A stretch of DNA of 64,000 nucleotides, taken from assembly GCA_005776585.1 (NCBI GenBank), contig SXOX01000045.1:53425-117424 (forward strand), in the 5' to 3' direction. Position numbers and translations under genes: made by a program. This document shows, in pieces, positions 13,926 to 33,231 of this stretch. This stretch comes from Pseudomonadota bacterium. Its GTDB lineage: Bacteria > Myxococcota_A > UBA9042 > GCA-2863065. Numbering within the stretch: the first letter of the stretch is position 1; each line of letters opens with the position of its first letter. The notes beneath the pieces were generated by a model. It searched no databases, was not told the origin of the DNA, and worked only from the letters and a program-made list of their open reading frames with translations.

Positions 13926-15020
13926 TCAACCCAGCCGCGGCGGTATCGCGACCACGTCGTCGAGGTGGCGCGCGCCGGTGGCGAGCATGATGAGCCGATC
14001 GACCCCCAGCGCGACGCCGGAGCACGGCGGGAGCCCCGCCTCGAGCGCATCCAGGAAGGACGCGTCGATGGGGTAGGCCGGTAGCCCCAGGCGCGCCCGC
14101 TCTGCGGCGTCGCGCTCGCATCGGGCCCGCTGCTCGACCGGATCGGTGAGCTCTCCGAAGCCGTTGCAGAGCTCGACGCCGTCGACATAGGCCTCGAATC
14201 GCTCCGCGACGGTCGGGTCGTCGTCACACGGTCGCGCCAGCGAGGCCAGAGCAATGGGCCAGCGCTCGAGCCACGTCGCCCCCAGCGGTGCCAGGGCGGG
14301 CTCGATGCGCTCGACGAGCTGCGTGATGACGTCATCTGGGTCCTGCGATGGGCGGCCGAAGCGCTCGAGGGCCTCCGCCACCGTGAAGCGGGTCCAGGCC
14401 CGGGGCTGGCCCGTCGCCAACGCGACGATGGCCTCGACGTCGTCTTGAATCGCGCGCGGCGGTTCGCCAGCGCGGTACCACTCGAGCATCGTGAACTCGC
14501 CGTGGTGGAGGTGCCCGTCCTCGTCGTCGCGAAACGCGCGGCCGAGGTAGAAGACGCGCTCGGCTCCCGCCGATAGCACGCGCTTGAGGTAGTACTCCGG
14601 ACTGGTGATGAGCCAGCGTGACTCGCGGGTGGAGCGCGCCTCGATCGCGCGGAGATGCACCTCGAGCCCAGGGGACCGCGCCATGACCGGGGTTTCGAGC
14701 TCCACGAAGCCGCGGTCTCGAAACCACGCGCGGAGCTCCGACATGAGCTCACAGCGGCGCACGAGGTTGGGCCAGATCCGGTGCAGCCGCCACCAGTCTT
14801 GCGCCTCCAGGTCGCGCGCTGAGCGATTGCGCGCCACGACGTGCACGTGACCGTTCGCCCACGTGACGAGATCGCCGAGGGCTGCCGTCTCCGTGCTCGA
14901 GCCCATGGGCAGCTCGCGCAGGCCGCTGAGCGTGGAGACGACGACCGCTTCCGGCCGCACACGCACGACCCGACCCGTGGGGAACGTCATTGGGAGGGAA
15001 CCGAGGTCATGCCTCGGCAA
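13926..15020 (-). CDS. epmA: EF-P lysine ligase (class II LysRS paralog, EpmA/GenX/PoxA)
   Basis: 364 aa with the class II aaRS core (FRDRGFVELETPV, YYLKRVLSAG, FRDDEDGHLHHGEFTMLEWY, GVALGVDRLIML). Lies immediately downstream of efp. Confidence 0.85.
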   Translation of the reverse strand: MPRHDLGSLPMTFPTGRVVRVRPEAVVVSTLSGLRELPMGSSTETAALGDLVTWANGHVHVVARNRSARDLEAQDWWRLHRIWPNLVRRCELMSELRAWFRDRGFVELETPVMARSPGLEVHLRAIEARSTRESRWLITSPEYYLKRVLSAGAERVFYLGRAFRDDEDGHLHHGEFTMLEWYRAGEPPRAIQDDVEAIVALATGQPRAWTRFTVAEALERFGRPSQDPDDVITQLVERIEPALAPLGATWLERWPIALASLARPCDDDPTVAERFEAYVDGVELCNGFGELTDPVEQRARCERDAAERARLGLPAYPIDASFLDALEAGLPPCSGVALGVDRLIMLATGARHLDDVVAIPPRLG

Positions 15021-15027
15021 TGCACGT

Positions 15028-15591
15028 CTACGCCTTGGCCCGGCTCATGTACTCGCCGGTGCGAGTGTCGATGCGGATGGTCTCACCGTCATCGATGAAC
15101 AGAGGCACGCGGACAATGGCGCCCGTCTCGAGCGTGGCCGGCTTGGTCGTGCCGGTCGCGGTGTCGCCTCGAATGCCCGGCTCGCAGTAGGTGATCTTGA
15201 GATCCACGAACGTGGGCGGCTCGACGTTGATGGGCCGCCCGTCGAAGAACAGTACCTGCACCGTCGCCTGCTCGATGAGCCACTGCGCGGCGTCCTCCAT
15301 GGCGGTCTTCTGAATGTCGACCTGCTCGTAGGACTCCTTGTCCATGAAGGAGTAGGCCGTCCCATCGTTGTACAGGTACGTCATGTCGCGCTCTTCGACG
15401 TCGGCAGGCTTGAGCTGCTCGCCGGTCTTGTAGGTGCGCTCCACCACGCGGCCCGTGATCAGGTTCTTGGCCTTGGTTCGCGTAAACGCCGTGCCCTTGC
15501 CGGGCTTGACGAACTGGAAGTCCACGATGGTCCACGGCACGCCATCAGCTTCGAACTTCAAACCTTTACGAATGTCACTGGTCTCGTACAT
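15028..15591 (-). CDS. efp: translation elongation factor P
   Basis: MYETSDIRKGLKFEADGVPWTIVDFQFVKPGKGTAFTRTKAKN, with the conserved Lys in KPGKG. Confidence 0.95.
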   Translation of the reverse strand: MYETSDIRKGLKFEADGVPWTIVDFQFVKPGKGTAFTRTKAKNLITGRVVERTYKTGEQLKPADVEERDMTYLYNDGTAYSFMDKESYEQVDIQKTAMEDAAQWLIEQATVQVLFFDGRPINVEPPTFVDLKITYCEPGIRGDTATGTTKPATLETGAIVRVPLFIDDGETIRIDTRTGEYMSRAKA

Positions 15592-15653
15592 GGGCGCGGA
15601 CTGAACCCGATTCCGATCGGGCTGTCAAGCCGCATTCGCGCGCGCGGCAGGCC

Positions 15654-18600
15654 TCACGGGCAGGTCGTCGTCGCACATGTGGACCCCTCCGCGCCAGACG
15701 TTCCGCCCGCGGTCGCGCACTTGGTCAACGCGATCCCGCCCGCGCAGCCGTCGCCGATGCAGCACGCGCCTGTCGCGACCTTGCACTTCGCTGAGAGACA
15801 CGAGCTGCCGGTACCGTTCCACGCGCCGTTCATGGCGTCGCAGTCGGCCTCATCGGTGTTACTACACGTGTTGTTGGCGCAGCACGCGCCGAGCCCCTTG
15901 GGCTTGCACTGGGTCGCGGGGCAGCCGAGGCCAGGGGAGAACACGCCGCCGATGGGTTGGCAGATGCCCGAGTTGGCCATGAAGCACGTCGTCGTGCCGA
16001 TGCAACAGGCGCCGAGCTCCCCAGATCCGGTACAGTCGACCTGCTCGCAGGTGAAGCCGAGCGAGATGGAGCCTCCCGCCAGTGAGCACTCGAGCGCCGT
16101 CTTCTGCGCGCACGTGTGGTCGGGGAGGCAGCAGGCGCCCGTCCCGACGCACTCGGTCGTAGCGCACTTCGTCGACGCGCCCATGAAGACGCCCCCGCCG
16201 ATAACGCAAGAGCCCGGCGTCGGCTCGGTCGTGCACGAGGCGTCCGGATGGCAGCAGGCGGTGCCATTCGAGCCGCTGCATTGGACCGCTACGCAGGCGA
16301 CACCATTGCCCGCATACTGTCCGCCGAGCGCCTGACAGGCCCACGCCTCGAGGTTGGCGCAGCCACTCGGCAGGCAGCAGGCTCCCTTGGGTGTCGTCGG
16401 GCACTGCACCTGGGTGCAGTCCAGCTGGTCGTGATAGACGCCCTCCTTCACCGCGCACTCCGCCGACGAACCCATGGTGCAGACGCCCGACAGCAGGCAA
16501 CAGGCCCAAGGCTGGTCGCCAGCGCAGAGCATCGGCGTGCACTGCGACCCGGCCCCTGAGAACGCGCCCCCAGACTTCTCGCACTCCTCCGCCGTCCGCG
16601 ATAGGCACAGGGGACTTCCAGGGAGGCAGCAGGCGCCGACGTCCTTCAGGCACGTGTCTGCGCACGTCGTCGCGACACCCTGGAAGGTGCCGGTTCCGCT
16701 GAGGCACGCCGACTTCCCAATCTCGGTGCAGAAGTGATCACTCGAGCAGCAGGCGCCCGGTGCGCCGCACGCCTCGATGGAGCAGTCGACGCCGACCCCG
16801 AGGAAGGAGCCAAAGCCCTGGATGCACGACTGGTACGTGGACTTCTTGCAGCTGTAGTCACTGGTGTTGCAGCACGCTCCGGCCGGATCGCACATGACGC
16901 CGTTACAGGTCGTGCCGTCGCCGGCGTAGGACCCGAACTTGCCGATGCACTCCGCCTCAGTCTCCGGCGAGCACTGGCCGTCGTTTCCGCAGCAGGCGCC
17001 CGAGCCCTTCGGTGGTCCCCCGGTGCACTTCACGTCCGCGCAGGCCTTGTTGTCCCCTTGGTAGCCTCCGCCGAGCGCCTCGCACTCCAGCTTGGTGATG
17101 ATCTGGCACTGCGCGGACGGAGTACAGCAAGCTCCGGTGAGATCGTAGTCACAGGCGTTCACGCTCGGGCACGTGGAGTTCGGCCCCTCGAACTCGTGGC
17201 CGAGTTCGGCGCATTGTGCCTCCGTGCGGAGCGTGCAGATGCCATGCGGGCCCGAGCAACAGCCGCCTTTCTTCGAGCCGGCGCAGATGACATTGGCGCA
17301 GCTGGCTCCCACGCCCGAGTAGGTCCCGCCTGCGCCGATGCACGTCACCTGGTCGACCTCGGAGCACTCTCCGTCGAGGCAACACGCGCCCGTTGCGGCC
17401 GTCCCGCAGGGGTTGAATGTGCACGAGCTGACGGCGCCCATGAAGGTACCCCCCGAGCCCGAGCACGCTGCTGGGGCCCCGAAGGTGCACGTCGCCTCCT
17501 TACAGCATGCTCCCGGAAGCGGGCCCGGGTCGCACGTACCGGAGCCACACGCGCTCCCTTGGCCCGCGAAGGTCCCTCCGGCCTTCAGGCATGCCGGCTC
17601 GTTGAGGCTCGTACAGTTGCCACCGGGGGCACAGCAGGCGCCGAGCGCGATCAGCGTGCACGTCCCGGTCGAGCACGTGACGTCCTTGCCCGCCGAGACC
17701 CCGCCGGCCTTGAGGCACGCGTTTGCGTCGATCTCCTTGCACGTCCCGGAGACACAGCACGCGACTTTGGGCAGCTCGCAGGTCCCGGCATTGCACGTCG
17801 AGCCGGGACCCGAGAACTGGCCGCCCGACTGGACGCACGCGTTGAGGGTCTTGGTCGTGCACGTGAGGCTGCTCCCACAACAAGCACCGCTGACGCCACA
17901 CGCGAGTGTCGCGCAGTCGGTGATCTTGAAGCTCATCGCGCCGCCCTTCTTCAGGCACGCGAGCGGCGCGGTGAGCGTGCAGGCATCGCCGGCCTCGCAG
18001 CACGCGACTGGCGCGGTACACGACGTCGCGGCACAGGTCGTCCCTGGGTCGGCAAAGACTCCCGCGGCGGCATCGCAGTCGGCGCCGTTGAGCTCCTTGC
18101 AGCCGGTGTCGGTGCAGCATGCCCCCTTGGGCGCGCAGACACTGACAGAACAGACGGTGTCCTCGCCCAGGAAGCTGCCGCCGGCGGTCTTGCAGAGCGC
18201 GGCCGTGAGCAGCTGGCACGACAAGTTCGGTAGACAGCAGCCTCCCTCGGTCTCCTTGGGTTCGCACGGCTTGGTGGAGCAAGCGATCCCCGCGCCCTGA
18301 TAGGCGCCGCCGCTCGCAGCGCACGCGGCCACAGTCACCGAGACGCAGGTCTCCTTCACGCAGCAGGCGCCTGCGGCCAGCTCTGCGCACGCCGCTTCGC
18401 TACACGTCGAGCCCGAGGCCAGCGGTGAGCCGCCAACGCCAAGGCAGGCAAAGAGGGTCTTCTCCTCGCAAGCCCCCGAGGTCAAGCAGCAGGGCGCGAC
18501 CTGACCGCCCGTGCAGGCGACGTCCGCACACGACAAGGTCGGCCCTTGGACCGTCCCCTGGTTCGCCTTGCACTCCTCTTGCGTCAGGTTCCCGCAGCTC

Positions 18601-20243
18601 CCATCCACCATGCAGCAGGCGCTCGTCGGCGCGGCGCACGTGACCGTCGAGCACGACGCCTCACCCTTGTGCAACGTCCCCCCCAGCGTGGCGCAGCTTC
18701 CGCCGCTCTCCATGGAGCAGGCGCCGTCGACGCAACACGCGGCCACCTTGGCGCAGTCGACGTCGATGCACGACAGGGAGCCCGGCTGGGGCGCGCCGCC
18801 CGAGCCGACGCAGGTCACGAGCGGCTTCAGCGCGCAGGTGCCGTCGGCGGCGCAGCAGGCCGCGTTCTGAGGTGCTGGACACGAGACGGCTGAACACGAG
18901 GTCCCGCCTCCTTGGAAGGCGCCGCCCTCCTTGGCGCAGGTCGTTGGCGTCTTCGGGCCGGCGCACGCACCGTCCGCGAGACAGCAGCCGCCTTCGGGCT
19001 CAGGACAGGTCACGTCCTTGCAGCCCAGGATCTCGCCCTGGGTCGACATCCATGTGCCGCCCGTGTCGACGCAGGTCGCCTTGGTTGCAAAGTCGCAGGC
19101 GCCGCTCTTCCGGCAGCACGCCCCGGGCAGCCCGACCGAGTCGCACTTGACGGCAGTGCACGCCACGGAGTCCCCCTGATAGGTGCCGGAGTCCGCGGCG
19201 CACTCCGAACTCGAGCGGACGTCGCAGTCGCCTTGCGGCAGACAACAGGCGCCATAGCTCGGGGCACAATTCGCTGTGGCGCAGGCGACGCCGTCGTCAA
19301 CGTAAAAGCCACCGGCTGCGCTGCAGACGGCTTCGGGCAGCATCGCGCAACCCGAGCCACCGAGGCAGCACGCGCCCGTGGCCGCGCCGCACGGTGCAGG
19401 GACACAGGTCGTCGCACCCGCCGCTGGCGCCGTGCCTCCCGCCGCCGTGCAGTCGGCCTTGGACAAGAGCGCGCAGAGGCCGAGGTTGAGGCAGCAGGCC
19501 TCCGCCGGGGCCCCACAGGCGCCGGCTGCGCACGTCTGCCCGCCGGTAGCGACCTTGCCATCGACGCTCGCGCACGCAGCCTCGGTCGTCGCGGAGACGC
19601 ACCCGCCGGCCCCACCGACGCAGCAGGCGACTGGCGCCGGGGCGCAGACCTTCGCGTCACACGTCGAGCCCGGCGCCTGCGACTGGCCACCCTTCGATTG
19701 GCATTCGAGCGGGGTCACGCTCGTGCAGGTGCCATCCGTAGCGCAGCAGGCACCTAGCCCGCCGTCCTTGCACGTCGCGGCGTCGCAGGCGCGTCCCAGA
19801 CCGCCGAAGAGACCCCCGAGCAACGCACAGGCCGGTGGCGTCCGCTCCGAGCAGGTGGCGAGTCCGGTCCCCGAACAACACGGACCAGTCGAGCAATTCA
19901 CCGTCGCGCAGCTCGACCCGCCGCCACGAAAGATCCCGCCGGCGGCGCCGCAGTCGTTCGCGGTTGCGACCTTGCACCCCGTAGACGCGCAACACGCGCC
20001 CAGTGCTGGCCCGACGTCCGCGGTCGTCTCCACACCGAGTTCGGCTTGCGGCCCCACCTCGGCGATGCTCCCCACGTCGACCACCGCGTCCTGTCCGCTC
20101 CACACGAACTCGCCCGTGGCGTCATGGACGGGCGTGGCCGCCCCGCCGTCGTCGGGGTCCGCCGCGCAGCCGCCCAGGGCAAGTCCCAGCACGAGCCCGA
20201 TTGCGCTCGGAATCCGTCGCGCGTCCCTGCGTCTACGAGGCAT
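15654..20243 (-). CDS. giant lipoprotein built of ~35 tandem Cys-rich ~40-aa modules
   Basis: 1529 aa. Lipobox LGLALGGC. I counted 35 occurrences of the (G/P/A)-x-CC module start. Each is followed by G-x-C, C, GG..(F/Y).G, C....C. Confidence 0.85.
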   Translation of the reverse strand: MPRRRRDARRIPSAIGLVLGLALGGCAADPDDGGAATPVHDATGEFVWSGQDAVVDVGSIAEVGPQAELGVETTADVGPALGACCASTGCKVATANDCGAAGGIFRGGGSSCATVNCSTGPCCSGTGLATCSERTPPACALLGGLFGGLGRACDAATCKDGGLGACCATDGTCTSVTPLECQSKGGQSQAPGSTCDAKVCAPAPVACCVGGAGGCVSATTEAACASVDGKVATGGQTCAAGACGAPAEACCLNLGLCALLSKADCTAAGGTAPAAGATTCVPAPCGAATGACCLGGSGCAMLPEAVCSAAGGFYVDDGVACATANCAPSYGACCLPQGDCDVRSSSECAADSGTYQGDSVACTAVKCDSVGLPGACCRKSGACDFATKATCVDTGGTWMSTQGEILGCKDVTCPEPEGGCCLADGACAGPKTPTTCAKEGGAFQGGGTSCSAVSCPAPQNAACCAADGTCALKPLVTCVGSGGAPQPGSLSCIDVDCAKVAACCVDGACSMESGGSCATLGGTLHKGEASCSTVTCAAPTSACCMVDGSCGNLTQEECKANQGTVQGPTLSCADVACTGGQVAPCCLTSGACEEKTLFACLGVGGSPLASGSTCSEAACAELAAGACCVKETCVSVTVAACAASGGAYQGAGIACSTKPCEPKETEGGCCLPNLSCQLLTAALCKTAGGSFLGEDTVCSVSVCAPKGACCTDTGCKELNGADCDAAAGVFADPGTTCAATSCTAPVACCEAGDACTLTAPLACLKKGGAMSFKITDCATLACGVSGACCGSSLTCTTKTLNACVQSGGQFSGPGSTCNAGTCELPKVACCVSGTCKEIDANACLKAGGVSAGKDVTCSTGTCTLIALGACCAPGGNCTSLNEPACLKAGGTFAGQGSACGSGTCDPGPLPGACCKEATCTFGAPAACSGSGGTFMGAVSSCTFNPCGTAATGACCLDGECSEVDQVTCIGAGGTYSGVGASCANVICAGSKKGGCCSGPHGICTLRTEAQCAELGHEFEGPNSTCPSVNACDYDLTGACCTPSAQCQIITKLECEALGGGYQGDNKACADVKCTGGPPKGSGACCGNDGQCSPETEAECIGKFGSYAGDGTTCNGVMCDPAGACCNTSDYSCKKSTYQSCIQGFGSFLGVGVDCSIEACGAPGACCSSDHFCTEIGKSACLSGTGTFQGVATTCADTCLKDVGACCLPGSPLCLSRTAEECEKSGGAFSGAGSQCTPMLCAGDQPWACCLLSGVCTMGSSAECAVKEGVYHDQLDCTQVQCPTTPKGACCLPSGCANLEAWACQALGGQYAGNGVACVAVQCSGSNGTACCHPDASCTTEPTPGSCVIGGGVFMGASTKCATTECVGTGACCLPDHTCAQKTALECSLAGGSISLGFTCEQVDCTGSGELGACCIGTTTCFMANSGICQPIGGVFSPGLGCPATQCKPKGLGACCANNTCSNTDEADCDAMNGAWNGTGSSCLSAKCKVATGACCIGDGCAGGIALTKCATAGGTSGAEGSTCATTTCP

Positions 20244-20432
20244 AGTCGATCACCCTCCAGTCGTCACCCTACTGACGAGCGCGGCTGGGTTCAACCGCGC
20301 ATCGCTTCTGACGCGCTGCGTCTTGAAGCGGTCGACTCGAAGTAGTAAGGGCCCCGTGGCCGTGAAGAACGGCGACGTCGCGCGACGGCCGTTGCGTTGA
20401 GCGCCGTGCAGGCCGGACTGGAGAGAGTTATC

Positions 20433-21848
20433 ATGAGCGAGAATTTGACGTTTACCGAGAACGTTTACAAGAACTTCGATCGTGCCATTGCTCGACTGAA
20501 CCTCCCGCGCGGCCTCGCGGAAAAGATCAAGGTTTGCAACTCCATGATCCAGTTCAGCTTCCCCGTTCGGGACGGGGACGGCTTTCGCATCGTCAACGCC
20601 TATCGGGCGGAGCACTCGGTTCACAAGCGGCCGACAAAGGGCGGCATCCGCTACGAAGTGCACGTCAACGCCGACGAGGTCGTCGCTCTGGCCACGTTGA
20701 TGACGCTCAAGTGCGCGGTCGTCAACGTGCCCTTCGGTGGCGCCAAGGGCGGCATTCGCATCGATCCGCGCAAGGAAAGCGCCGAGTTCATCGAGCGGGC
20801 GACCCGCCGCTACACGGCCGAGCTGTACTACAAGAACTTCATCGGCCCGGGCGTCGACGTCCCGGCGCCCGACATGGGCTGCGGCGAGCGCGAGATGGCG
20901 TGGATCGCGGACACCTACGCGACCCTGGCCCACCACGACGTCGACCATCTGGCGTGTGTCACCGGCAAGCCCGTCGCGCAGGGCGGCATCAGCGGTCGCA
21001 AGGAGGCGACCGGACGCGGCGTGCAGTTCGGCATTCGCGAGCTGTTTCGCAGTGCCGACGACGTCAAGGGGTGCGGTCTCTCGGCGGGCCTCGGCGGCAA
21101 GCGCGTCGTGGTTCAGGGCCTCGGCAACGTTGGCTACCACGCGGCCAAGTTCCTCGCGGAGGAGGACGGCTGCCGTATCGTCGGCATCTGCGAGCGCGAC
21201 GGCGCCATCTGGAATGACGCGGGGCTGGACGTCGACGCCGTGAGACGGCACATGGATGAGACGAACGGAGGCGTCAAAGGCTTTCCAGGCGCGACCTACT
21301 TCGAGGACGGAGACAAGGTGCTCTGCGGGCCCTGTGACATCCTCGTCCCCGCGGCTCTCGAGAACCAGATCACGGAGGCCAACGCCGACCGCATCCAGGC
21401 GCGCATCATCGCCGAGGCGGCCAACGGCCCGACCACGGCGGCGGCGTCGGAGCGGCTGTTCCAGCGCGGCGTCATCGTCATCCCCGACCTCTACCTCAAC
21501 GCGGGTGGCGTGACCGTGTCGTACTTCGAGTGGTCGAAGAACCTGGCGCACATCCGGTTCGGTCGGCTCGAGAAGCGCCTCGAGGAGGGCCGCACGCATC
21601 GGCTCATGCAGGCCATCGAGCGGCTCACCGACCGCCGCTTCGGCGACGACGAGTTCACCAACGTCGCGCGCGGCGCCGACGAGATCGACCGCGTGCGTGC
21701 CGGCCTCGATGACACGATGCGGACGTCCTACGCCGAGATTCGCACGGCACAGCGCCGCTTCCCGGGAATCGACCTGCGCACCGCCGCCTACATCGTCGCG
21801 ATCGACAAGGTGGCCACCTCCTACATGCAGCTCGGCGTCTGGCCCTGA
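20433..21848 (+). CDS. gdh: Glu/Leu/Phe/Val-family amino-acid dehydrogenase (glutamate dehydrogenase-like)
   Basis: KGGIRY, VNVPFGGAKGGI, VVVQGLGNVGYHAA (Rossmann). ATG at 20433 after GGAGAG. The track starts at the TTG at 20397. Confidence 0.9.
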   Translation: MSENLTFTENVYKNFDRAIARLNLPRGLAEKIKVCNSMIQFSFPVRDGDGFRIVNAYRAEHSVHKRPTKGGIRYEVHVNADEVVALATLMTLKCAVVNVPFGGAKGGIRIDPRKESAEFIERATRRYTAELYYKNFIGPGVDVPAPDMGCGEREMAWIADTYATLAHHDVDHLACVTGKPVAQGGISGRKEATGRGVQFGIRELFRSADDVKGCGLSAGLGGKRVVVQGLGNVGYHAAKFLAEEDGCRIVGICERDGAIWNDAGLDVDAVRRHMDETNGGVKGFPGATYFEDGDKVLCGPCDILVPAALENQITEANADRIQARIIAEAANGPTTAAASERLFQRGVIVIPDLYLNAGGVTVSYFEWSKNLAHIRFGRLEKRLEEGRTHRLMQAIERLTDRRFGDDEFTNVARGADEIDRVRAGLDDTMRTSYAEIRTAQRRFPGIDLRTAAYIVAIDKVATSYMQLGVWP

Positions 21849-22043
21849 CGCTCTACTGCAGTGCGGCGCTTGCGCTTCGGCGAGCAGACTCTCCGATACC
21901 AACACCGGCTCTTGGTCCCGTGGCCGGCCTCGCTCGCCACGCACGACGTCCGCAGTGATGGAGTCGGTTTCGGGTGCGCGTTCTTTCCCATCGTGAAATT
22001 TCGCGCGCTTTCGGACGGTTGAACGCTTTGAGCGCGCAACCCG

Positions 22044-23033: not shown

Positions 23034-26000
23034 CTAGCGCACCGCGCGACGCAGTCGAAGCACGTCCCGAGCCGTGGCGCGTCCGTCGCCGTCAAGATCC
23101 GGCAGAGTCTTCCCTGACAGCAGCCCGTGGCGATAGGCCATCACGTCACGCAGCGTGAGCTCGCAATCGCCATCGAGGTCCATCGGGCCCGCCACGCCGC
23201 TGCACGCGGGGTCGAGATCGCCGAGACCGGCCACGATCGCGTGCGAGCCGTTCGGCCCGATGGGCGTCACCGCGTCGATGGAGACCGCTTTGATGACGGT
23301 GCCCCCCATCGTCGAGACCAGGTCGCCGCCCTTGAGGGCCTTGTACGAGACGGTGAACAGATGCAGGTCCGGGCCCTTCTTGATCCCTGCCAGCGGGTTG
23401 AAGATCGCATTCAACAGGATCTTGCCGCCACCGACGAACGGGTTCGCGTTGAACGTCGCCCCTTGCGCCGCGGGGCCGGCCTGCACGTCCAGCGCGTCGA
23501 GTACCTGCGGATCGAAGGCGAGCTGTACATCGATGGCGCCGAGCGGCAGGTCGCAGGTGTTGAAGCGCCCGTCGAGGGTGAATGTGGTGCCCGGTGCCCG
23601 ATCCTTGAACGCCAGACCGACCGTGTCGCCGAGATCGATGTCGCCGCAGTCGGGCAGCAGGTTGCAGTCCGTCGAGGTCTCTGCCGGCGGATTGAAGTTG
23701 CCGCCCTTGTCCACGGCCAGGTTCACGTCGACGCGAAACACCGTCGACTTGTTGCCGCGAATGGTCGCGAGTCCGGCGGTGTCGATGGTCGCACCCTCCG
23801 TGTCGGTCGAGCTGAACTCCAGCAGCGTCGGAACGAGGTGCGGCCCGACGAACTTGCGGCGCGTGCCGTCGTTGAACAGGCCCCACAGCTCGAGCTGCGA
23901 GGTCCCCTGATCTTTGATGCCCGAGAACGTCGGGCCCGCGGCGAGGCTTGGGTAGAGCGCGACGAGGCCCTCGTTGAACGTGTCGACCTTGAAGCCGGCA
24001 ATTTGGCTGACCATCGAGCCGAGGCTGAACTGAAGGTCGACAACGCCGTTGGCGCCCGCCTTGACGGTACCCAGCGCAGGATCGAGCTGAAGCACCGCGT
24101 TGTTTGGCGACTGTGTCCCCGCGTTGAAGACCTTGACCTGCGCCTGCGCGGTCACGTCGCTTGACGTGCCGTCCGTATAGTTGAGGATGACGACGTACGT
24201 GCCATCCTGCCACGTGGGCGTGCCCTCGATCTTCGAGAACGTGTGGTCGCTCACCCGCGGCGGGAAGGGGGTATAGGGCTCGTAGACATCCGCGGTCAGG
24301 CCGCTCGCCTTGACGACCTTGACGGTCACGTCGGCGGTGCCCAGGGCCGGATACTGGCCGATGGACACGCGCACGCTCGCGTCGCCCGTGGCCTTGCCCG
24401 TCGCACTGACGAGGCCCGTGGTCGTCGCTTGAATCAGGTCACCCGCGTCGAGCACCGTGGCGTCGTAGGCCGTCGTGGCGTGCGCCGTAAAGTCGATGAG
24501 GGAGCCATCCTGGTAGAGCACCTGGACCTGGAGCTGCTGACTGGTCGGCAGGCCCTTGATGGTCGCCGCGGTGTCCGTGGCCGCGATCGCGATCGTGCTC
24601 GCCTTTGGCGTCACGATGAGCTGCTTCGGGGCCGGCAGGTCCACCTTGACCGGCGTGCTGCCGGTGCACAGGTCCTTGCCGCCGACCGTCCAGGTCGCGC
24701 TGACCGTCGCCGTGCCGCCACCCACCGCGGTCAAGAGCCCACCCGGCGTGCTCCCGACGATGCTCGGAGACAGCGAAGTGACCGCCAGACCCACGGCGCC
24801 CGTGATGTTCATCCGGGCCCCGTCGCCAAAGCGCGCGTACACCTGCGCCTGGCAGGTCTGGTTGTACTGCTTCATAAAGGCGAAGACGCCTGCCTCGGCC
24901 GTCGTCTGGCCGACCTGAACCGTGGGCTGCGCGGGGAGCAGCGACATCATCGTGACGTCGCACGGCGCGATGACCTGGAGGCTCGTGCACTGGACCGTGG
25001 CCGCGGGCTGAACCGAGATGGCCTGTGACGCCAGGACATTCCCTGCCGCGCCGCGGGCGTTGAGCGTGAACGTCCCGGCCGTCGTCGCGGTCAGCACGCG
25101 ACTCGCCGGATCGTAGACGCCACCCGTCGGGAGGTCGAAGTCCTTGGCCTTCAGAAGCGGCGTCATGTCTTGCTTCCAGAGGGTCTGCTTGCCGTCCGAC
25201 CACGGGAGCTTGAGGCGCAGCGCCGCGGTCTGGACCTTGGTCGTCCCGGTGATCGTCTGGAGGATGGAGTCCGACAGCTCGAGCTCCGCCGTGCCGGGGA
25301 CGAGCACGCGCACACGACCGCTCGAGGCAAAGCCCGAGTGGCCGCCCGTGATGATCGCGGTTCCGGCCTTGCCTGCCGCAGTGAGGGTGCCACCGGCGCC
25401 GACCTTGACGATCGTTGGATCGGTCGAGCTGAGGGTCGTGCCCACGTCGGAGGCGCCCGGAAGCTGCGCACAGTCGCGGCGGAAGAGCGTGAAGCCGACG
25501 ATGGACGTGTCCGGGATGCCGGTGACGGGAGCCCAGTTCAGGAGCTGGACGTCGGGCAGCGACAGGAGCACGCCGCGCACCGCCCGCGACCAGGTCGTGA
25601 CCTTGCCCGACGCCGACGAGCCCGAGGCGTCCGCGACGGCCAACGGCGCGTTTGCCGCGAGCGACGAGAGGTTCTTCGAGTAGAGATCCTCAAGCGTGCC
25701 GGAGATGGACGCGAAGGCGATCGGGCTGTCTGGAGTGAGGCTCTCCAGCGCGCGGAAGCCGAGCGTCGCGACGTGGATCTTGCTGCCCTTGGTGCACGTC
25801 GTGACTCCCAGCGAGGCGAGCGCGTTGAACTTGATCTGCCCCGATTGATTGGCGTTCGTGGTGACGTTGCTCACCGGATCGTCGAAGTCGGCGCAGCTGC
25901 CCTTCTGGATCGACATGACCTCGAGCTTCGACTGATCGAAGGTGATCTTGATGTCGTAGGCACCAATGTCGTCGGCCTGCGAGGCAAGGTAGACCGGCAC

Positions 26001-29000
26001 CTGGAAGACGTCCTTGACGAACTGCGGCGACAGCGGGAGCTCGAGACCGGCTCCGGGTGAGGCGATGGCCAGCGCGACGGGTCGCGGGGTGATGGCGATC
26101 GTCACGGCTTGCGGTGGGAGGCCACCGACCGAGACGCTTGCGGTGACGCTGCCGCTCTGATTGAACACGCTGGCAGGCGCGGTCCACGAGATGACGCAGC
26201 GGCCGGTCGCGTCGGTCGAGCACGTGGCCTGCGTCGCCGCGGGCAGCCCGGCCCCCGAGAGCGCCGCGGTGACCACGGTGCCCGGCTTGACCGGACGATA
26301 GCCTGCGTCACGCACCTGGACTGCGAGCTTGGTCGCCGATGCGTCTGCGTACAGGACATCCCGCATCAGCACGACCTCGAGCACCCCGGGGGCCAGCGCG
26401 AGCACGTTGAAGCCCATCGGCGCGGACTTCACCCCGTAGGCGTCGACGAACACGGAGCCAGCCTCGTTGGGGTTGGCGAGATCCTGGATGACCGTGTCGT
26501 AGGTGCCATCGCCGTTGTCGATGACCAGGTTCTCGACCTGACCGAGCGAGCTCTGGAAGCGGACCTCCGCGCCTGCGACCGCCGGCTTGTCACCGAGGCA
26601 GTTCGCCTCGTCGATGGAGCCGTTGCAGTCATTGTCCTTGCCGTCGCCGCACAGCTCCTTGACCTTGGGTGCGGTGCACGACTGGAAGGAGCCATTGGTG
26701 CAGACCTCGGTGCCCTGGACGCCGCACGCGTTCTGGCACGGCTGGACGAGCGCCAGGTTGAAGACCGGATCTTCGTCGATGAGGCCGTCGCAGTCGTCGT
26801 CGAGCCCATTGCAGACCTCGGGCGAGGAGGCCTTCGTCGTAAACGTGGACTGCGACGTTGCGGCGACGCAGGTCTGACACCCGTTCTTGGGGTTGGTCGC
26901 TCCGTCGACGTAGCACACGTTGCCGATCAGGCAGAAGGCCGGCTGCAGGACGTGACCGCAGCCCGTGACCGGATCGCAGGTCTCGCCGGTGCAGAACAGC
27001 CCGTCATCGCAGACCTTCGGATCGGCGATGTGCAGGACCTGGCCCGTCGCGTCGTCGCACAGGTCGAGGGTACACGCGATGTCGTCGTTCGTGGTCGGCC
27101 CGACGCCAGGCTGGCAGTCGAGCGTCGGATGGCACGACTCGTAGCCATTGCAGAACTTGCCGTCGTCGCACTTGCTGTCGTTGAGGATGTGCTTGAAGGC
27201 CTTGGTCCCCTCATCGCAGACGTCGTCGGTGCAGGGCACGCCGTCGTCACTTCCTGCCGGCGGCGTTCCGAGGACGCAGCCCTTGCCGACCTCGCAGCGC
27301 TCGGTGCCATTGCAGTAGCTCGCATCGACGCACAGCGCGTCATTGGGCACGTGCTCGCAGACGGCGTTGACGCCTTGCGCGATGCACGCGTCCTTCGTGC
27401 AGGCAAAGCCGTCGTCGCAGTCGGCCGCGACGTTGCAGCACGTGGCGCCGAGCGTGAGGTTCTTGCAGCGCCCGTAGACGCATGCGTCGGCCGTGCAGCT
27501 GTCGCCGTCGTCGCATTGCGCCTCGGCCGTGGCCCCGGTCGCGAGATCGCAGCACTTGCCGAGCGCCGTGGCGGGCACCGGCACGAAGGCGCACACGCCG
27601 TTGACGCACGTCTCGGCCGTGCACTGATTGCCGTCACCGCACTGCACGCTGATGGCGATCGGCGCGTTCGGATCGCAACAGGTGCCGCCCCCCGAGGGCG
27701 CGATGGGCGCATGCGTGCACAGGTGCGTGGCGACGTTGCAGGCGTCGAGCGTGCACGTGTTCTGATCGTCGCAGTCGGAGTCGGCCGAGCAGCAGCCCGC
27801 GCCCGAAGGGACATGCCGGCAGCTCCCGATGGCTCCCGGAATGACCTTGCCGCCGGAGGCCACGCAACCGTCCTGCGTACAGGCGTCCGTGTCATCGCAA
27901 TGCGAGGCCGGACCGCCGATGGTGCAGCATCCGGCGATGCCGTACTGGCTGCACTTGCCGGTCTTGAGGTTGCACACGTCGTCGGTGCACGGGTCGGCGT
28001 CGTCGCAGGCGGTGTTTAGCGTACAGCAGCTTGGGATGGCGTCGTAGACACACGCCTTCTTGGCCACGTCGCACTGCGTGCCGGTGCACGGGTTGTCGTC
28101 GAGCGCGCAGTGGTTGATCTTGCCCGACTCGCCTACCTGACCGTCGCAGTACGCCGGGTCTGGATACGACAGGCAGTGGTAGTCCTTGCAGCTGTCGACG
28201 GTGTCCGGGAGCCCGTCGTCGCAGATGGCGTCGGTCGTGGCCTTGGGGTAGGTGTTCACCGAGCAGCAGCCCACGCCGCCCTTGAGCACCGGCGGCTTGC
28301 ACACGTGCTTGGCCTCATCGCAGTCGACCGTCGCGCACGGGTCGGAGAGGGAGCCGCAGTCGCTGTCCACGTTGCAGCAGGTGCTCCCGAACTGCGCCAC
28401 GTCCGGACCATGGCGGCACGTATTGCCGAGGCACAAGTCCATCGTGCAGGTGTCGGCGTCTCCGCACTGTCCGCTCTCCACGCAGCAGGTCGGCGGTGGT
28501 GTGACGGTAAACGTGCAGGCGTTGCCCTGGCAGGTCGGCACATGACAGGCCGTTGGCCGCACGCAGTCGGCGGCCTCGTTGCAGCAGCCTGCGACCGGCA
28601 GATGGCCGCACTCGTTCGCCTGGCAGACGTCCAGCGTGCACGGGTCGTCGGCAGGCTTCTCGTGACACTCCGGGGCCACGAGCGGCGAGTACACGTCGGT
28701 GTTGGCGCTGCCGGGTGTACCGAGATCGCCCGCCCCGCCGGGGATGGCCGCGCTCGAGGCCTTCCAGCTCTGGCCGAGATCGTTGTCCGCTTCGACGTTG
28801 GTCAGCGCGATGCTCGCTCCAGACGGGTTGGGGAAGTTGGGACCGCCGTCGTAGTGGACAGCGTCGTGCGTGGCTCCGGACTTGTCCTTGAGCAGGACGG
28901 AGTCCTCGCCGTTGTTCAGCGTGAAGCCCGTGCCGTACACCGCGCCACACGAGATGCCGCCGTTCTTGGCGGCGTCGCCGTTCTTGCACAGCACCAGCGC

Positions 29001-30635
29001 GCCCTTGGCGGGGACGAACAGCGGCCCGCCCGGCGAGAGGGTCACCTGCGTGCCGGTCGCGCCTTCCTCGGCGAGGATCCAGCCTCCGATATCCACGGGG
29101 GAGCCCGTCGTGTTGAACAGCTCGATCCACTCGCCATCGGCGTCCGCGACCGCCACCGGGTCGATCATCAGCTCGTGGATGACGATCGCGCTCTGCGGCT
29201 TGGTGGCGCAATAGCCCGAGTCCGGGACGTGCACACATTGGTTGGCCGTGCACCGATCCAGTGTGCTCGGGTCGAGGTCGTCGCACGCGTCGTCGCCCGC
29301 GCAGCAGCCCGTCTGCGCCGTCTTGACCTGAAAGACGCAGGAGTGCGCGACCGTGTCGCACTTGTCGTTGGTGCAGGCGTTGCCGTCGTTGCAGTCGGGG
29401 TCGGCGTTACAGCACGCGGTCATCCCGGGGAGCTGGAGCGGGTGACGGCAGACGTTGGCGACGCACAGGTCGGTCGTGCATGGGTCCGCGTCGTCGCACT
29501 GGTCGTGCTTGCCGGTCTCGCAGCAGGCGCCCTCGGCGTTCTGGACGGGGGCGTGGGTGCACGTCTCGGTGCCGCAGTCGCAGCCGTCCGTCGTACAGGA
29601 CTTGCCGTCGTCGCACTGCGTCGTGACCGCGGTGCCCGCGGCGCAGTCGCAGCACGTCGGCTTCTGGGGGTCCTTCGTGTGCGAGCAGCCGTGGGTCGCC
29701 GCGTCACACAGGTCGATGGTGCACGCGTTCTTGTCGTCGCACGCCGGGTCCCCGTTGCCCTCGCAGCAGACGCCGGTCGGCGTGTCGATGGGCTGGTTGA
29801 GGCAGGTGTAGGTTCCGCACAGGCACAGGTCGGAGGTGCAGCTCTTGCCGTCGTTGCACTGGGACTCCCCGGCGTTCGCGGCGCCGCAGTCGCAGCAGCC
29901 TGGCTTGGCCGAGTCCGGGGTCGTCACGCAGGAGCCGCCCGTGCAGACGTTCTTGGTGCACGGGTTGCCGTCATTGCACTGGATGTCGAGCTGGCAGGCC
30001 GGCGAGCAGGTGTGGGACGTGAGGTTGCAGTGCTCGCCCGGCGCGCACTGGAACTCGCCACCGCAACACGTCGCGTCTGCCGCCGGGCCGAAGACGCATT
30101 GGCCTTCGGCGGAGCATGTCGGCGCATCACACACGAAGGCCGTCTCGCAGTCCGTGGCGCTCTGGCAGGGCTTGGGAACCGCGAACGCGGGGAGGACGCA
30201 GCGCGCTGCGGCCGAGGCCAACGGGTAGCCGGACGGGAGTGCGATGGCGACCGCCAGAGCGTGGCGACCCGGTCCGACGGCGATGGTGAGCTTGCCGGCG
30301 ACCTTGGTCGTCCCGAGCGGTGTGTTGGCCTCGTCGTACCAGGCGAGCACGAACTGCCCCGAGGCGAGATCCGCCGCGACGTTGGTCGTCACGTCGACCG
30401 TCACCTGGGTGAGCTGTGGCGAGGTCGTGTCCGACCACACGCACGTGATCGCCGGGCCGCTCGCCTCCGCCGTCACCGTCGACAGCGTCGAGACGGGCGC
30501 GCCCGCGTCGGGGCTCGGGTCGACCGCGCACGCAGCGGCGGAGAGGCCCAACGCCAGCATCGCCGTGCGCAGCCAGCGCCCGGCCCTCACTTCGAACGCG
30601 CCCCGAAGGGCGACTGCAACGGGAACCTGCGGCAT
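23034..30635 (-). CDS. giant surface lipoprotein: Cys-rich CxDGNxCTxDxC repeats, lamin-tail domain, MopE-like CNGxDDDCDGxIDE motifs, Ig-like domains, two cohesin-like domains, C-terminal dockerin
   Basis: 2533 aa. Lipobox LGLSAAAC. CDDKNACTIDLC-type repeats. IVIHELMIDPVAVADADGEWIELFNTTGSPVDIGGW (LTD). VPVYLASQADDIGAYDIKITFDQSKLEV (cohesin-like). DLDGDCELTLRDVMAY...DLDGDGRATARDVLRL (dockerin). Confidence 0.9.
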   Translation of the reverse strand: MPQVPVAVALRGAFEVRAGRWLRTAMLALGLSAAACAVDPSPDAGAPVSTLSTVTAEASGPAITCVWSDTTSPQLTQVTVDVTTNVAADLASGQFVLAWYDEANTPLGTTKVAGKLTIAVGPGRHALAVAIALPSGYPLASAAARCVLPAFAVPKPCQSATDCETAFVCDAPTCSAEGQCVFGPAADATCCGGEFQCAPGEHCNLTSHTCSPACQLDIQCNDGNPCTKNVCTGGSCVTTPDSAKPGCCDCGAANAGESQCNDGKSCTSDLCLCGTYTCLNQPIDTPTGVCCEGNGDPACDDKNACTIDLCDAATHGCSHTKDPQKPTCCDCAAGTAVTTQCDDGKSCTTDGCDCGTETCTHAPVQNAEGACCETGKHDQCDDADPCTTDLCVANVCRHPLQLPGMTACCNADPDCNDGNACTNDKCDTVAHSCVFQVKTAQTGCCAGDDACDDLDPSTLDRCTANQCVHVPDSGYCATKPQSAIVIHELMIDPVAVADADGEWIELFNTTGSPVDIGGWILAEEGATGTQVTLSPGGPLFVPAKGALVLCKNGDAAKNGGISCGAVYGTGFTLNNGEDSVLLKDKSGATHDAVHYDGGPNFPNPSGASIALTNVEADNDLGQSWKASSAAIPGGAGDLGTPGSANTDVYSPLVAPECHEKPADDPCTLDVCQANECGHLPVAGCCNEAADCVRPTACHVPTCQGNACTFTVTPPPTCCVESGQCGDADTCTMDLCLGNTCRHGPDVAQFGSTCCNVDSDCGSLSDPCATVDCDEAKHVCKPPVLKGGVGCCSVNTYPKATTDAICDDGLPDTVDSCKDYHCLSYPDPAYCDGQVGESGKINHCALDDNPCTGTQCDVAKKACVYDAIPSCCTLNTACDDADPCTDDVCNLKTGKCSQYGIAGCCTIGGPASHCDDTDACTQDGCVASGGKVIPGAIGSCRHVPSGAGCCSADSDCDDQNTCTLDACNVATHLCTHAPIAPSGGGTCCDPNAPIAISVQCGDGNQCTAETCVNGVCAFVPVPATALGKCCDLATGATAEAQCDDGDSCTADACVYGRCKNLTLGATCCNVAADCDDGFACTKDACIAQGVNAVCEHVPNDALCVDASYCNGTERCEVGKGCVLGTPPAGSDDGVPCTDDVCDEGTKAFKHILNDSKCDDGKFCNGYESCHPTLDCQPGVGPTTNDDIACTLDLCDDATGQVLHIADPKVCDDGLFCTGETCDPVTGCGHVLQPAFCLIGNVCYVDGATNPKNGCQTCVAATSQSTFTTKASSPEVCNGLDDDCDGLIDEDPVFNLALVQPCQNACGVQGTEVCTNGSFQSCTAPKVKELCGDGKDNDCNGSIDEANCLGDKPAVAGAEVRFQSSLGQVENLVIDNGDGTYDTVIQDLANPNEAGSVFVDAYGVKSAPMGFNVLALAPGVLEVVLMRDVLYADASATKLAVQVRDAGYRPVKPGTVVTAALSGAGLPAATQATCSTDATGRCVISWTAPASVFNQSGSVTASVSVGGLPPQAVTIAITPRPVALAIASPGAGLELPLSPQFVKDVFQVPVYLASQADDIGAYDIKITFDQSKLEVMSIQKGSCADFDDPVSNVTTNANQSGQIKFNALASLGVTTCTKGSKIHVATLGFRALESLTPDSPIAFASISGTLEDLYSKNLSSLAANAPLAVADASGSSASGKVTTWSRAVRGVLLSLPDVQLLNWAPVTGIPDTSIVGFTLFRRDCAQLPGASDVGTTLSSTDPTIVKVGAGGTLTAAGKAGTAIITGGHSGFASSGRVRVLVPGTAELELSDSILQTITGTTKVQTAALRLKLPWSDGKQTLWKQDMTPLLKAKDFDLPTGGVYDPASRVLTATTAGTFTLNARGAAGNVLASQAISVQPAATVQCTSLQVIAPCDVTMMSLLPAQPTVQVGQTTAEAGVFAFMKQYNQTCQAQVYARFGDGARMNITGAVGLAVTSLSPSIVGSTPGGLLTAVGGGTATVSATWTVGGKDLCTGSTPVKVDLPAPKQLIVTPKASTIAIAATDTAATIKGLPTSQQLQVQVLYQDGSLIDFTAHATTAYDATVLDAGDLIQATTTGLVSATGKATGDASVRVSIGQYPALGTADVTVKVVKASGLTADVYEPYTPFPPRVSDHTFSKIEGTPTWQDGTYVVILNYTDGTSSDVTAQAQVKVFNAGTQSPNNAVLQLDPALGTVKAGANGVVDLQFSLGSMVSQIAGFKVDTFNEGLVALYPSLAAGPTFSGIKDQGTSQLELWGLFNDGTRRKFVGPHLVPTLLEFSSTDTEGATIDTAGLATIRGNKSTVFRVDVNLAVDKGGNFNPPAETSTDCNLLPDCGDIDLGDTVGLAFKDRAPGTTFTLDGRFNTCDLPLGAIDVQLAFDPQVLDALDVQAGPAAQGATFNANPFVGGGKILLNAIFNPLAGIKKGPDLHLFTVSYKALKGGDLVSTMGGTVIKAVSIDAVTPIGPNGSHAIVAGLGDLDPACSGVAGPMDLDGDCELTLRDVMAYRHGLLSGKTLPDLDGDGRATARDVLRLRRAVR

Positions 30636-32016: not shown

Positions 32017-33231
32017 ATGCACTTTGGTGACAAGCTACAATCGGCACTCGGGTGCCTTGCCCTGGCGTCCGGGCTCATCACGGCGGGTGGCGCCGCGCTC
32101 GGCTGCGCGGCCGAGGAGTCCGAGACCGCCAAGACGACGAACGGCAAGCAAACGGCGACCCTGCCACCGCCTTGCTCGGGGTCCGGCATCGCGTGCCGCT
32201 ACGCGGGGACACAAATCGGTGGGCTGTCCGTCGATGGCGACAAGGCCCTGCTCACCCGGTTCTACTGGCCCGTGGATCTCCACTTCGGCAAGAACGGCGT
32301 GCCGTACCTCATCGACTGGAACAACCACAAGATCCGCGAGGTCGCCGAGGGCGACGCCATCGAGACGATCATCGGCACGGAGCTCCCGGGAGACGGCGCT
32401 GACCTCAAGGCGCCCATCAAGGGCGTCGACTGCGCCGTGAACCATCCCACGCAGCTGCTCAATGCGCCAGACGGTGCCATCTATATCGCCGCGTGGCACA
32501 ACCACAAGATCCGCCGCTGGGACCCTGCGACGGGCATGATTCAGACCATCTACGGCAGTGGTCCGGGCTTTGCTGGGGACGGCGGCAGCGGCAAGTCGGC
32601 CAAGTTCAACCAGCCCAAGGCCCTGGCGCTCTCGAAGGGCGGCGACCTCTTTGTGTCCGACCAGCGCAACTTCCGCGTGCGCAAGTTCACGCCCGATGGC
32701 AAGACCTCGACGGTCGTTGGCAAGGGCACGAAGGGCTATTCGGGTGATGGCGGAAAGCCCCTTGAGGCGGAGCTCAACTTCGAGGCCGGCGGCAATCCGG
32801 AGCCCTCCGGTGGACTGGTCGTCGACGCGTCCGATCGGCTCTACATCGCAGACTCCGAGAATCACCGGATTCGGCGCGTGGACTTCGCCACAGACCTCAT
32901 CGAGACCATCGCCGGCACCGGCGAGGGCGGCTACTCCGGTGACGGCGCCGCAGCGACGGCAGCCAAGCTCAACAAGCCGCGCGACCTGGAGATCGGGCCT
33001 GATGGCCACCTCTATCTCGCCGATACGGAGAACCACCGCATCCGCGCCATCGACCTGACCTCGGGCATCATCCGGACGGTCGTCGGCTCGGGCGTCGAGG
33101 GCAGCGACGGTGAAGGCAAGCCCGCGGCTGAGATTCAGCTCCGGCGGCCGTTCGGCCTCGCGTTCGACGCGAAGGGCAACCTCTACGTGGCCGACACGTT
33201 CAACAACCGCTTCCTGGTCATCGCGAAGTAA
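32017..33231 (+). CDS. NHL-repeat lipoprotein, paralog 1
   Basis: Lipobox GAALGC. Repeated NHKIRR / NHRIRR + GDGG blades. Confidence 0.8.
   Translation: MHFGDKLQSALGCLALASGLITAGGAALGCAAEESETAKTTNGKQTATLPPPCSGSGIACRYAGTQIGGLSVDGDKALLTRFYWPVDLHFGKNGVPYLIDWNNHKIREVAEGDAIETIIGTELPGDGADLKAPIKGVDCAVNHPTQLLNAPDGAIYIAAWHNHKIRRWDPATGMIQTIYGSGPGFAGDGGSGKSAKFNQPKALALSKGGDLFVSDQRNFRVRKFTPDGKTSTVVGKGTKGYSGDGGKPLEAELNFEAGGNPEPSGGLVVDASDRLYIADSENHRIRRVDFATDLIETIAGTGEGGYSGDGAAATAAKLNKPRDLEIGPDGHLYLADTENHRIRAIDLTSGIIRTVVGSGVEGSDGEGKPAAEIQLRRPFGLAFDAKGNLYVADTFNNRFLVIAK

Follow-up and report, generated by a model that had tools for sequence, protein, structure and literature searches.

What is the use of a protein that consists, behind its lipoprotein signal and a short linker, of nothing but one small cysteine-rich module repeated 35 times? 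The question is raised by a gene of 1529 codons, starting with ATG, on the minus strand (positions 15654..20243) of a 64,000-nucleotide stretch, here called the window, of contig SXOX01000045.1 from a bacterium deposited as Pseudomonadota and placed by GTDB in the Myxococcota_A. The gene is referred to below as the array gene and its six-cysteine repeat as the GACC module. The reading that we favour, with a probability of about 0.55, is that the product is a structural element tethered to the outer membrane, stapled by disulfides and built as beads on a string, the length of which matters; an enzyme or a sequence-specific receptor seems less likely. A structural role is proposed because among orthologues only the scaffold of Cys, Gly and Ala residues and the order and number of the modules are conserved, while the surfaces vary.

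The array itself is regular to an unusual degree. Splitting of the product at its CC dipeptides yields exactly 35 modules, each of 36-45 residues, and 35 separate hidden Markov model (HMM) matches, all in one frame, run contiguously over residues 82-1529 (15657..20000, minus strand) up to the TGA stop codon (15654..15656, minus strand). The 211 cysteines, 13.8% of the residues, amount to six per module plus that of the lipobox. Aligned with each other, the 35 modules never differ at the six Cys columns and keep one Gly to at least 90%, at a mean column identity of 36%. The consensus of this alignment is GACC-x5-C-x3-T-x3-C-x3-GG-x3-G-x-G-x2-C-x4-C, and all 35 modules obey the spacing CC-x(3-6)-C-x(7-8)-C-x(11-14)-C-x(4-5)-C, over ~41 residues. 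When variable distances are allowed, the window modules are described by G-A-C-C-x(3-6)-C-x(7-8)-C-x(3)-G-G-x-[FY]-x-G-x-G-x-x-C-x(4-5)-C. An earlier inspection of the letters, the sequence-only reading, had counted 35 six-Cys modules of ~40 residues in a continuous array behind a lipobox and a short acidic linker; both the count and the layout were recovered here, with a consensus close to the pattern that it had given.

The copies are old. Pairs of modules share on average 56% of their DNA positions (maximum 69%, minimum 45%), the longest exact direct repeat within the gene measures 17 nt, and no period of ~123 bp was detected in it by Tandem Repeats Finder. Because the modules are so diverged and exact or periodic repetition is lacking to this extent, the array is real, consists of old copies and is no assembly artefact. 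The sequence-only reading had argued from divergence at the DNA level against a recent amplification or an artefact, and the argument gains from the positional orthology between this array and those of other genera. A mis-assembled repeat, a decaying gene or an unexpressed reading frame might still be suspected in a fragmented metagenome-assembled genome (MAG), and the locus does lie on contig C15 of a 7.0-Mb MAG of 334 contigs, 87% complete. However, modules that differ this much are too diverged to collapse or to be joined wrongly, the frame stays open over its whole length with the six Cys kept in every module, positional orthologues occur in at least six related genomes, and the identical protein, with identical neighbours, is recorded on a 203-kb ENA metagenome contig. 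The chance that the array is such an artefact is practically negligible.

The amino-terminal part of the product contains a signal peptide (residues 1-25, MPRRRRDARRIPSAIGLVLGLALGG; 20169..20243, minus strand) with a positive n-region, a hydrophobic h-region and the lipobox L-G-G. Lipoproteins were recognised by a lipobox [LVI][ASTVIG][GAS]-C within the first ~35 residues, after a charged n-region and a hydrophobic h-region; the sequence GLVLGLALGG-C26 fits this PS51257-type pattern, as do the four complete orthologues described below and a paralogue encoded on contig C257 of the same genome. Cys26 (20166..20168, minus strand), the predicted lipid-modified +1 residue, is followed by an acidic, Cys-free linker of 55 residues (residues 27-81; 20001..20165, minus strand) with 11 D/E and 0 K/R, which is probably disordered. 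The linkers of the four complete orthologues have the same character (40-56 residues, 10-20 D/E, 0-1 K/R). For the mature protein 1504 residues, 143.7 kDa and an isoelectric point of 4.34 were computed. The chain ends two residues past its last Cys, with no carboxy-terminal sorting tag and no other domain. Beyond the lipidated Cys there are 210 cysteines, which would allow at most 105 disulfides, in line with the figure of roughly 100 that had been suggested.

The destination of the protein can be predicted by analogy. In Myxococcus xanthus a Lys at +2 directs lipoproteins to the inner membrane and an Ala at +7 directs them to the matrix (PMC3222651). The array protein has Ala at +2 and Asp at +7, and neither +2 Lys nor +7 Ala was found among the five N-termini compared, those of the window protein and of the four orthologues (A/S/S/G/G at +2, D/S/E/D/T at +7). 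Because both M. xanthus signals are absent, the outer membrane would be the default predicted destination of this lipoprotein. Disordered N-terminal linkers are reported to be typical for outer-membrane lipoproteins of E. coli (bioRxiv 10.1101/2021.01.05.425367).

An orthologous array gene is present in all six relatives examined, and four of the copies are complete. These four (genomes G002, G005, G006 and G007, from three genera) each encode exactly 48 modules with a lipobox and an acidic linker, and nothing else; the gene runs off the end of its contig in G003, after at least 43 modules, and in G004, after at least 24. The related contigs were retrieved with an alignment of five orthologues; a contig search with the whole window protein gave 20 pattern matches, none of them confirmed. 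A best-match analysis among the 48-module proteins showed that module i pairs with module i over much of the length. Modules 1-11 of the window protein are colinear with modules 1-11 of the longer proteins, at 40-45% identity and almost free of gaps, and its modules 26-29 were consistently paired with their modules 39-42. When the window protein was aligned to each of them module by module by dynamic programming, the score lay 5-9 standard deviations over that of shuffled module orders (925 against 615 +/- 35 in the case of G007). By EF-P identity the window genome stands nearest to g4 (69-71%), a genus with 48 modules. Since this nearest genus has 48, the 35-module state would most simply result, as far as these alignments go, from a secondary loss of about 13 central modules, with modules 1-11 and the C-terminal block kept.

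The four-way alignment of the 48-module proteins comprises 2102 columns, 459 of them invariant, and the invariant ones include 275 Cys, 116 Gly and 33 Ala besides the rest, so that these three residues make up 92% of what does not change. Overall identity reaches only 47% for proteins of the same genus and 38-40% across genera. Ratios of nonsynonymous to synonymous substitution (dN/dS) between orthologues were unreliable and were set aside, dS being saturated (1.1 to >3). Such invariance of the scaffold alone, at low overall identity and in 48 positionally orthologous copies in four genomes of three genera, therefore argues that selection keeps the scaffold, the number of beads and their order, that is, a geometry, and not the surfaces with their chemistry.

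To which family does the module belong? The sequence-only reading had been unable to name one, and the library searches agree. Neither the whole protein nor fragments of one, three and four modules gave any match in Pfam or NCBIfam at E<=10 or in PHROGs at E<=0.01, and thus no characterised repeat family was matched even by the single module. Among the candidates considered, the Myxococcus-type Cys-rich repeats (TIGR02232 and TIGR04201, the latter that of the TraA stalk) and PF00526 were rejected on this basis. EGF-like, LDL-receptor class A and other catalogued disulfide-rich repeats were rejected as well, with no match in Pfam and with sequence and fold matches in the PDB to iRhom proteins only. 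A phage tail-fibre repeat was discarded in the same way, there being no PHROG at E<=0.01 and no Foldseek match at E<=10 among the viral predicted structures of BFVD, a scope that leaves uncultured viral contigs outside.

The module is common outside the libraries. A word-indexed search of 5.8 billion proteins returned 89 matches (best E 5.7e-115); those among them with a named source came mostly from MAGs of Phycisphaerae/Planctomycetota, plus one MAG of Candidatus Eisenbacteria, and the matched proteins carry the unit GACC...C...C...GG.YQGD.T.C....CP in runs of up to about 30. When 1.84 billion cluster representatives were searched exhaustively by HMMER with the 35-module profile, 8,081 proteins scored E<=1e-3; 4,007 of them reached E<=1e-10 and 969 even E<=1e-30. 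Many proteins of the family are annotated as 'hypothetical', and full-text literature searches found no bacterial description of the GACC repeat, only analogues such as TraA. Judged by these profile searches, the GACC module is a very large family without a model in the domain libraries searched, and a curated model would annotate thousands of surface or secreted proteins of Planctomycetota, Myxococcota and candidate phyla. The arrays of Phycisphaerae/Planctomycetota share with that of the window the ~41-residue module, the spacing of the six Cys and the motifs G-A-C-C and GG-x-[FYW]-x-G-x-[GD]-[ST]-x-C. However, they belong mostly to mixed-domain proteins with ordinary signal peptides, whereas the window protein is a lipoprotein made of modules only. 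The partners to which array runs are fused in other phyla include SdrD-B, the P-domain of proprotein convertases, lamin-tail (LTD) domains, multicopper oxidases of laccase type and dockerin-like tails.

Nearer to the window genome, the distribution was surveyed, as had been suggested. All eight genomes of its GTDB family hold the module in large arrays, with 23-66 module matches each; it occurs in only 5 of 33 other genomes of the same class. In the Myxococcota as a whole it is sporadic: of 301 genomes sampled, 31 have it at E<=1e-5, most of them with just one or two copies. The window genome has a second carrier, the paralogue on contig C257 (L026:2128-4356, minus strand), a predicted lipoprotein with the lipobox FGGA-C. 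In this protein, which has no NCBIfam match, a different Cys-rich region with motifs of the type C-x-D-x-x-x-C precedes seven C-terminal CC-anchored GACC modules, six of which reach HMM significance. In another genome of the class two arrays (G296:C3:258596-259072 and G296:C8:58496-58972), in frames of 875 residues, have identical scores at every module, and the pair stems either from a duplication that is very recent or from a contig present twice in the assembly. One GACC-bearing contig, L058 (CAYMSD010000007.1), is deposited as a MAG of 'uncultured Klebsiella sp.'; since all other matches are from Planctomycetota or Myxococcota, it is probably mis-binned or mislabelled.

What shape would a bead of this string have? 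Structure prediction, which had also been proposed for a few modules, was carried out with AlphaFold2 on module alignments and gave a confident module fold, with a mean predicted local distance difference test (pLDDT) of 87.2 for one module and 86.4 for three. In the models a beta-hairpin leads into a short helix and then a third strand; the last two Cys lie in an extended tail behind it. The predicted template modelling score (pTM) was 0.59 for the single module and 0.44 for the three-module model. A value as low as the latter, alongside a high pLDDT, points to well-defined beads whose mutual orientation the model would leave free.

The only solved structures that resemble this unit are parts of animal proteins, and the match is weak. 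A profile search of all PDB sequences gave at E<1 only chains of iRhom1 and iRhom2 (9XY4, 9Q7Y, 9O58 and 8SNL; E 0.003-0.009), and the alignment takes in each of the six Cys along a single segment of the iRhom homology domain (IRHD); the first half of the module aligns also with a second IRHD segment. Foldseek searches of the PDB with both models likewise returned only iRhom chains, at E 4-10, values that are not significant alone for so short a unit. The superpositions have a root-mean-square deviation of 1.6 A over 40 columns for the three-module model and of 1.5 A over 37 columns for the single module, the latter with a template modelling score of 0.74 normalised to the module. Comparison of an alignment of 85 modules with the iRhom1 segment by hhalign yielded a probability of 62% (E 7.6e-5). 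Against the module HMMs, real iRhom segments score 24-27 bits and shuffled segments in which the Cys are kept in place score 5 +/- 4.7 bits; between 0 and 3 of 1000 shuffles equalled the real score. The resemblance therefore seems to go beyond the spacing of the cysteines, a suggestive but not a decisive result.

The IRHD was described from cryo-electron microscopy of iRhom2 with ADAM17 as an extracellular domain 'stapled by 8 disulfide bonds' (PMC11248996), called structurally unprecedented by its authors and published as having no structural relatives. It is a single domain of ~230 residues with 16 Cys, located between the first and second transmembrane segments of a rhomboid-like membrane protein, and ADAM17 is its binding partner; the window protein, in contrast, is a tandem array and nothing else after its lipoprotein signal and linker, with no rhomboid fold and no ADAM partner. 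The possibility that the window protein is itself an IRHD protein was rejected, since the architecture of the whole domain and the rhomboid membrane core are absent: no rhomboid transmembrane core and no Rhomboid Pfam match were found in the array protein. A building block is probably common to the module and this eukaryotic domain, and the odds that the two are homologous are roughly even. Weak as it is, a link that appears both in sequence and in fold provides a testable lead on the origin of the IRHD.

From these elements a course of events can be proposed for the array protein. It would be exported by Sec and then processed and lipidated at Cys26 by Lgt, LspA and Lnt, as in established lipoprotein biology. 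In the oxidising periplasm the six Cys of each module would form three disulfides, about 105 in total; that they staple the module is suggested by analogy, because its only relatives in the PDB, the IRHD segments of iRhom, are disulfide-stapled. A disordered acidic linker would lead from the lipid anchor into the 35 GACC beads, and the array would act as a flexible tether, spacer or surface coat attached to the outer membrane and resistant to proteases and denaturation. A function as spacer or stalk would suit the way in which other phyla use the module, in long runs attached to domains of many kinds, and a structural role is further supported because no catalytic or binding domain was matched in the libraries searched.

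Several points weigh against this structural reading. The sorting rules by which the outer membrane is predicted are extrapolated from M. xanthus, a distant relative. The protein would be a stalk only, with no obvious head to present, and no conserved partner gene was found beside the orthologues, the flanks being common only to pairs from the same genus. The window copy has 35 modules and not 48, and hence length is not strictly fixed. Finally, rapid change of surfaces would also be expected of an adhesin under diversifying selection.

That last point leads to the rival functions. Cys-rich modules of hevein type and CBM type are binding modules, and on their model the array would be a multivalent adhesin or lectin, the modules of which bind glycan, mineral or the surface of prey, with the array conferring avidity and the lipid anchor holding it to the cell. 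Many tandem units of identical fold would suit such a function, as would the low identity of the orthologues (38-47%). Enzymes such as multicopper oxidases and peptidases, the usual company of carbohydrate-binding modules, stand next to the module in other phyla. The motif GG-x-[FY]-x-G is fairly conserved, with its aromatic present in 22 of the 35 window modules (F 14, Y 8), but this also means that the aromatic is missing from about a third of them; moreover, no similarity to a known binding module was found in Pfam or the PDB, and with 92% of the invariant positions occupied by Cys, Gly or Ala no conserved surface patch is evident. An adhesin is considered unlikely. Somewhat less probable still would be a ruler or tether confined to the periplasm, on the inner leaflet of the outer membrane, which sets or buffers the spacing of the envelope in the manner of Lpp of E. 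coli and is not exposed at the surface. The lipoprotein signal without inner-membrane retention residues and the 48 modules conserved in four orthologues fit it, and no surface-export signal or partner gene is known for the lineage. However, a chain of 35-48 small domains would, if extended, be expected from the domain count to measure several times the length of the periplasm, which favours exposure; the pTM of 0.44 suggests a flexible chain and not a rigid strut in the model, and the window copy falls short of those in its nearest relatives by 13 modules.

The high content of Cys, with a vicinal CC in every module, could also be read in terms of chemistry. In this case the 210 cysteines would be reduced or would cycle, sequestering Cu, Zn or Cd or absorbing oxidants as in a giant exported metallothionein. 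Yet the Cys are fixed in their spacing inside a confidently predicted fold of beta-hairpin and helix, the only structural relative is disulfide-stapled, the lipoprotein signal implies export to an oxidising compartment, and no match to metallothioneins or to any metal-binding family was found in Pfam or NCBIfam; a thiol buffer of this kind is very improbable. There is, on the other hand, a bolder form of the structural proposal, according to which the building block of the IRHD would have a genuine bacterial homologue, and perhaps its evolutionary source, in the GACC bead, and the protein would be a bead-built, lipid-anchored ruler in which the count (48, secondarily 35) and order of the beads are selected and their surface is free. 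We hold this as a tentative idea, rather doubtful as a whole. If true, it would describe a length-defined spacer of the envelope or surface of a kind undescribed for bacteria.

Small disulfide-rich modules in tandem are a well-known route to extracellular stalks. EGF-like and LDL-receptor class A arrays, for example, are long head-to-tail extracellular arrays of ~40-residue modules with six Cys and three disulfides, although they lack the vicinal CC start and the hairpin-helix-strand topology of the GACC module. Within the phylum, TraA of M. xanthus has a Cys-rich tandem repeat that was proposed as 'a rigid stalk' presenting a PA14 head (PMC3325183). TraA (TIGR04201) and proteins with PF00526-type repeats resemble the array protein in being exported myxobacterial envelope proteins with small tandem Cys-rich repeats assumed to be disulfide-bonded. 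They differ in that TraA has the PA14 head and a MYXO-CTERM tag, whereas the window protein has an N-terminal lipid anchor, no head, no C-terminal tag and another repeat family. By this comparison, the TraA repeat, although unrelated, would be the closest functional analogue in the phylum. The kind of object, a tandem disulfide-rich extracellular repeat, is thus familiar, while the GACC family is uncatalogued and very large. What is new is the extension of this family into the Myxococcota, a lipoprotein composed of its modules only, and an orthologue of 48 beads throughout the GTDB family in which only the scaffold is conserved. A protein made of modules only is also a good subject for structural work on the disulfide map, the spacing of the beads and their flexibility.

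Does the genomic setting add to this picture? Upstream, the array gene is separated from a divergent glutamate dehydrogenase gene (gdh; 20433..21848, plus strand; 471 residues, Pfam ELFV_dehydrog and ELFV_dehydrog_N) by an intergenic region of 189 bp (20244..20432, minus strand as read for the array gene), with a Shine-Dalgarno-like motif GGAGGG ~9 nt before the ATG. A minus-strand frame of 564 residues over gdh (20250..21944) was rejected as a spurious antisense frame, having no family and an implausible composition. Therefore, the array gene is not the second gene of an operon and has its own upstream region, and the 189 bp presumably hold its own promoter; a scan of the locus for sigma-70 and terminator consensus and an Rfam scan gave no match.

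Downstream, the sequence-only reading had placed the array gene directly upstream of efp-epmA on the same strand, and this is indeed the order in the window. The efp gene (15028..15591, minus strand; 187 residues, Pfam EFP_N/EFP/Elong-fact-P_C) begins 62 nt after the array gene and is followed by a gene for an EpmA-like paralogue of class II aminoacyl-tRNA synthetases (13926..14990, minus strand; 354 residues, Pfam tRNA-synt_2, 1.3e-39). The PGKG loop of the encoded EF-P carries the lysine expected for beta-lysylation of EpmA type. In the spacer between the array stop and the efp start (15592..15653, minus strand) a perfect TTGACA hexamer occurs together with a small hairpin (CCCGATcggaATCGGG), on which the consensus scanner was silent; for this reason efp may have its own promoter. 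EF-P genes were located in ten related genomes and their flanks compared. Among the relatives, the array gene lies directly upstream of efp-epmA, as in the window, only in G004 (L023). The adjacency is absent in G002, G005 and G007 in spite of enough upstream sequence, and for G001, G003 and G006 the contigs end too early to decide. A functional link of the array with efp-epmA, as operon or regulon, was accordingly rejected as a general feature, and the adjacency is treated as historical, not functional.

Other genes of the window encode further proteins of the envelope or surface. A giant neighbour, 2.8 kb from the array gene (23034..30635, minus strand; 2533 residues), is a second, unrelated Cys-repeat surface protein with matches to Cohesin, Lamin-tail (LTD) and Dicty_CTDC (PF00526, the Cys-rich repeat of Dictyostelium/Myxococcus type) and no NCBIfam family. 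None of these three domains is matched by the array protein, in accordance with the earlier remark that the two repeats differ. Farther on (32017..33231, plus strand), a protein of 404 residues with beta-propeller repeats of NHL/teneurin type is predicted to be an envelope or surface protein.

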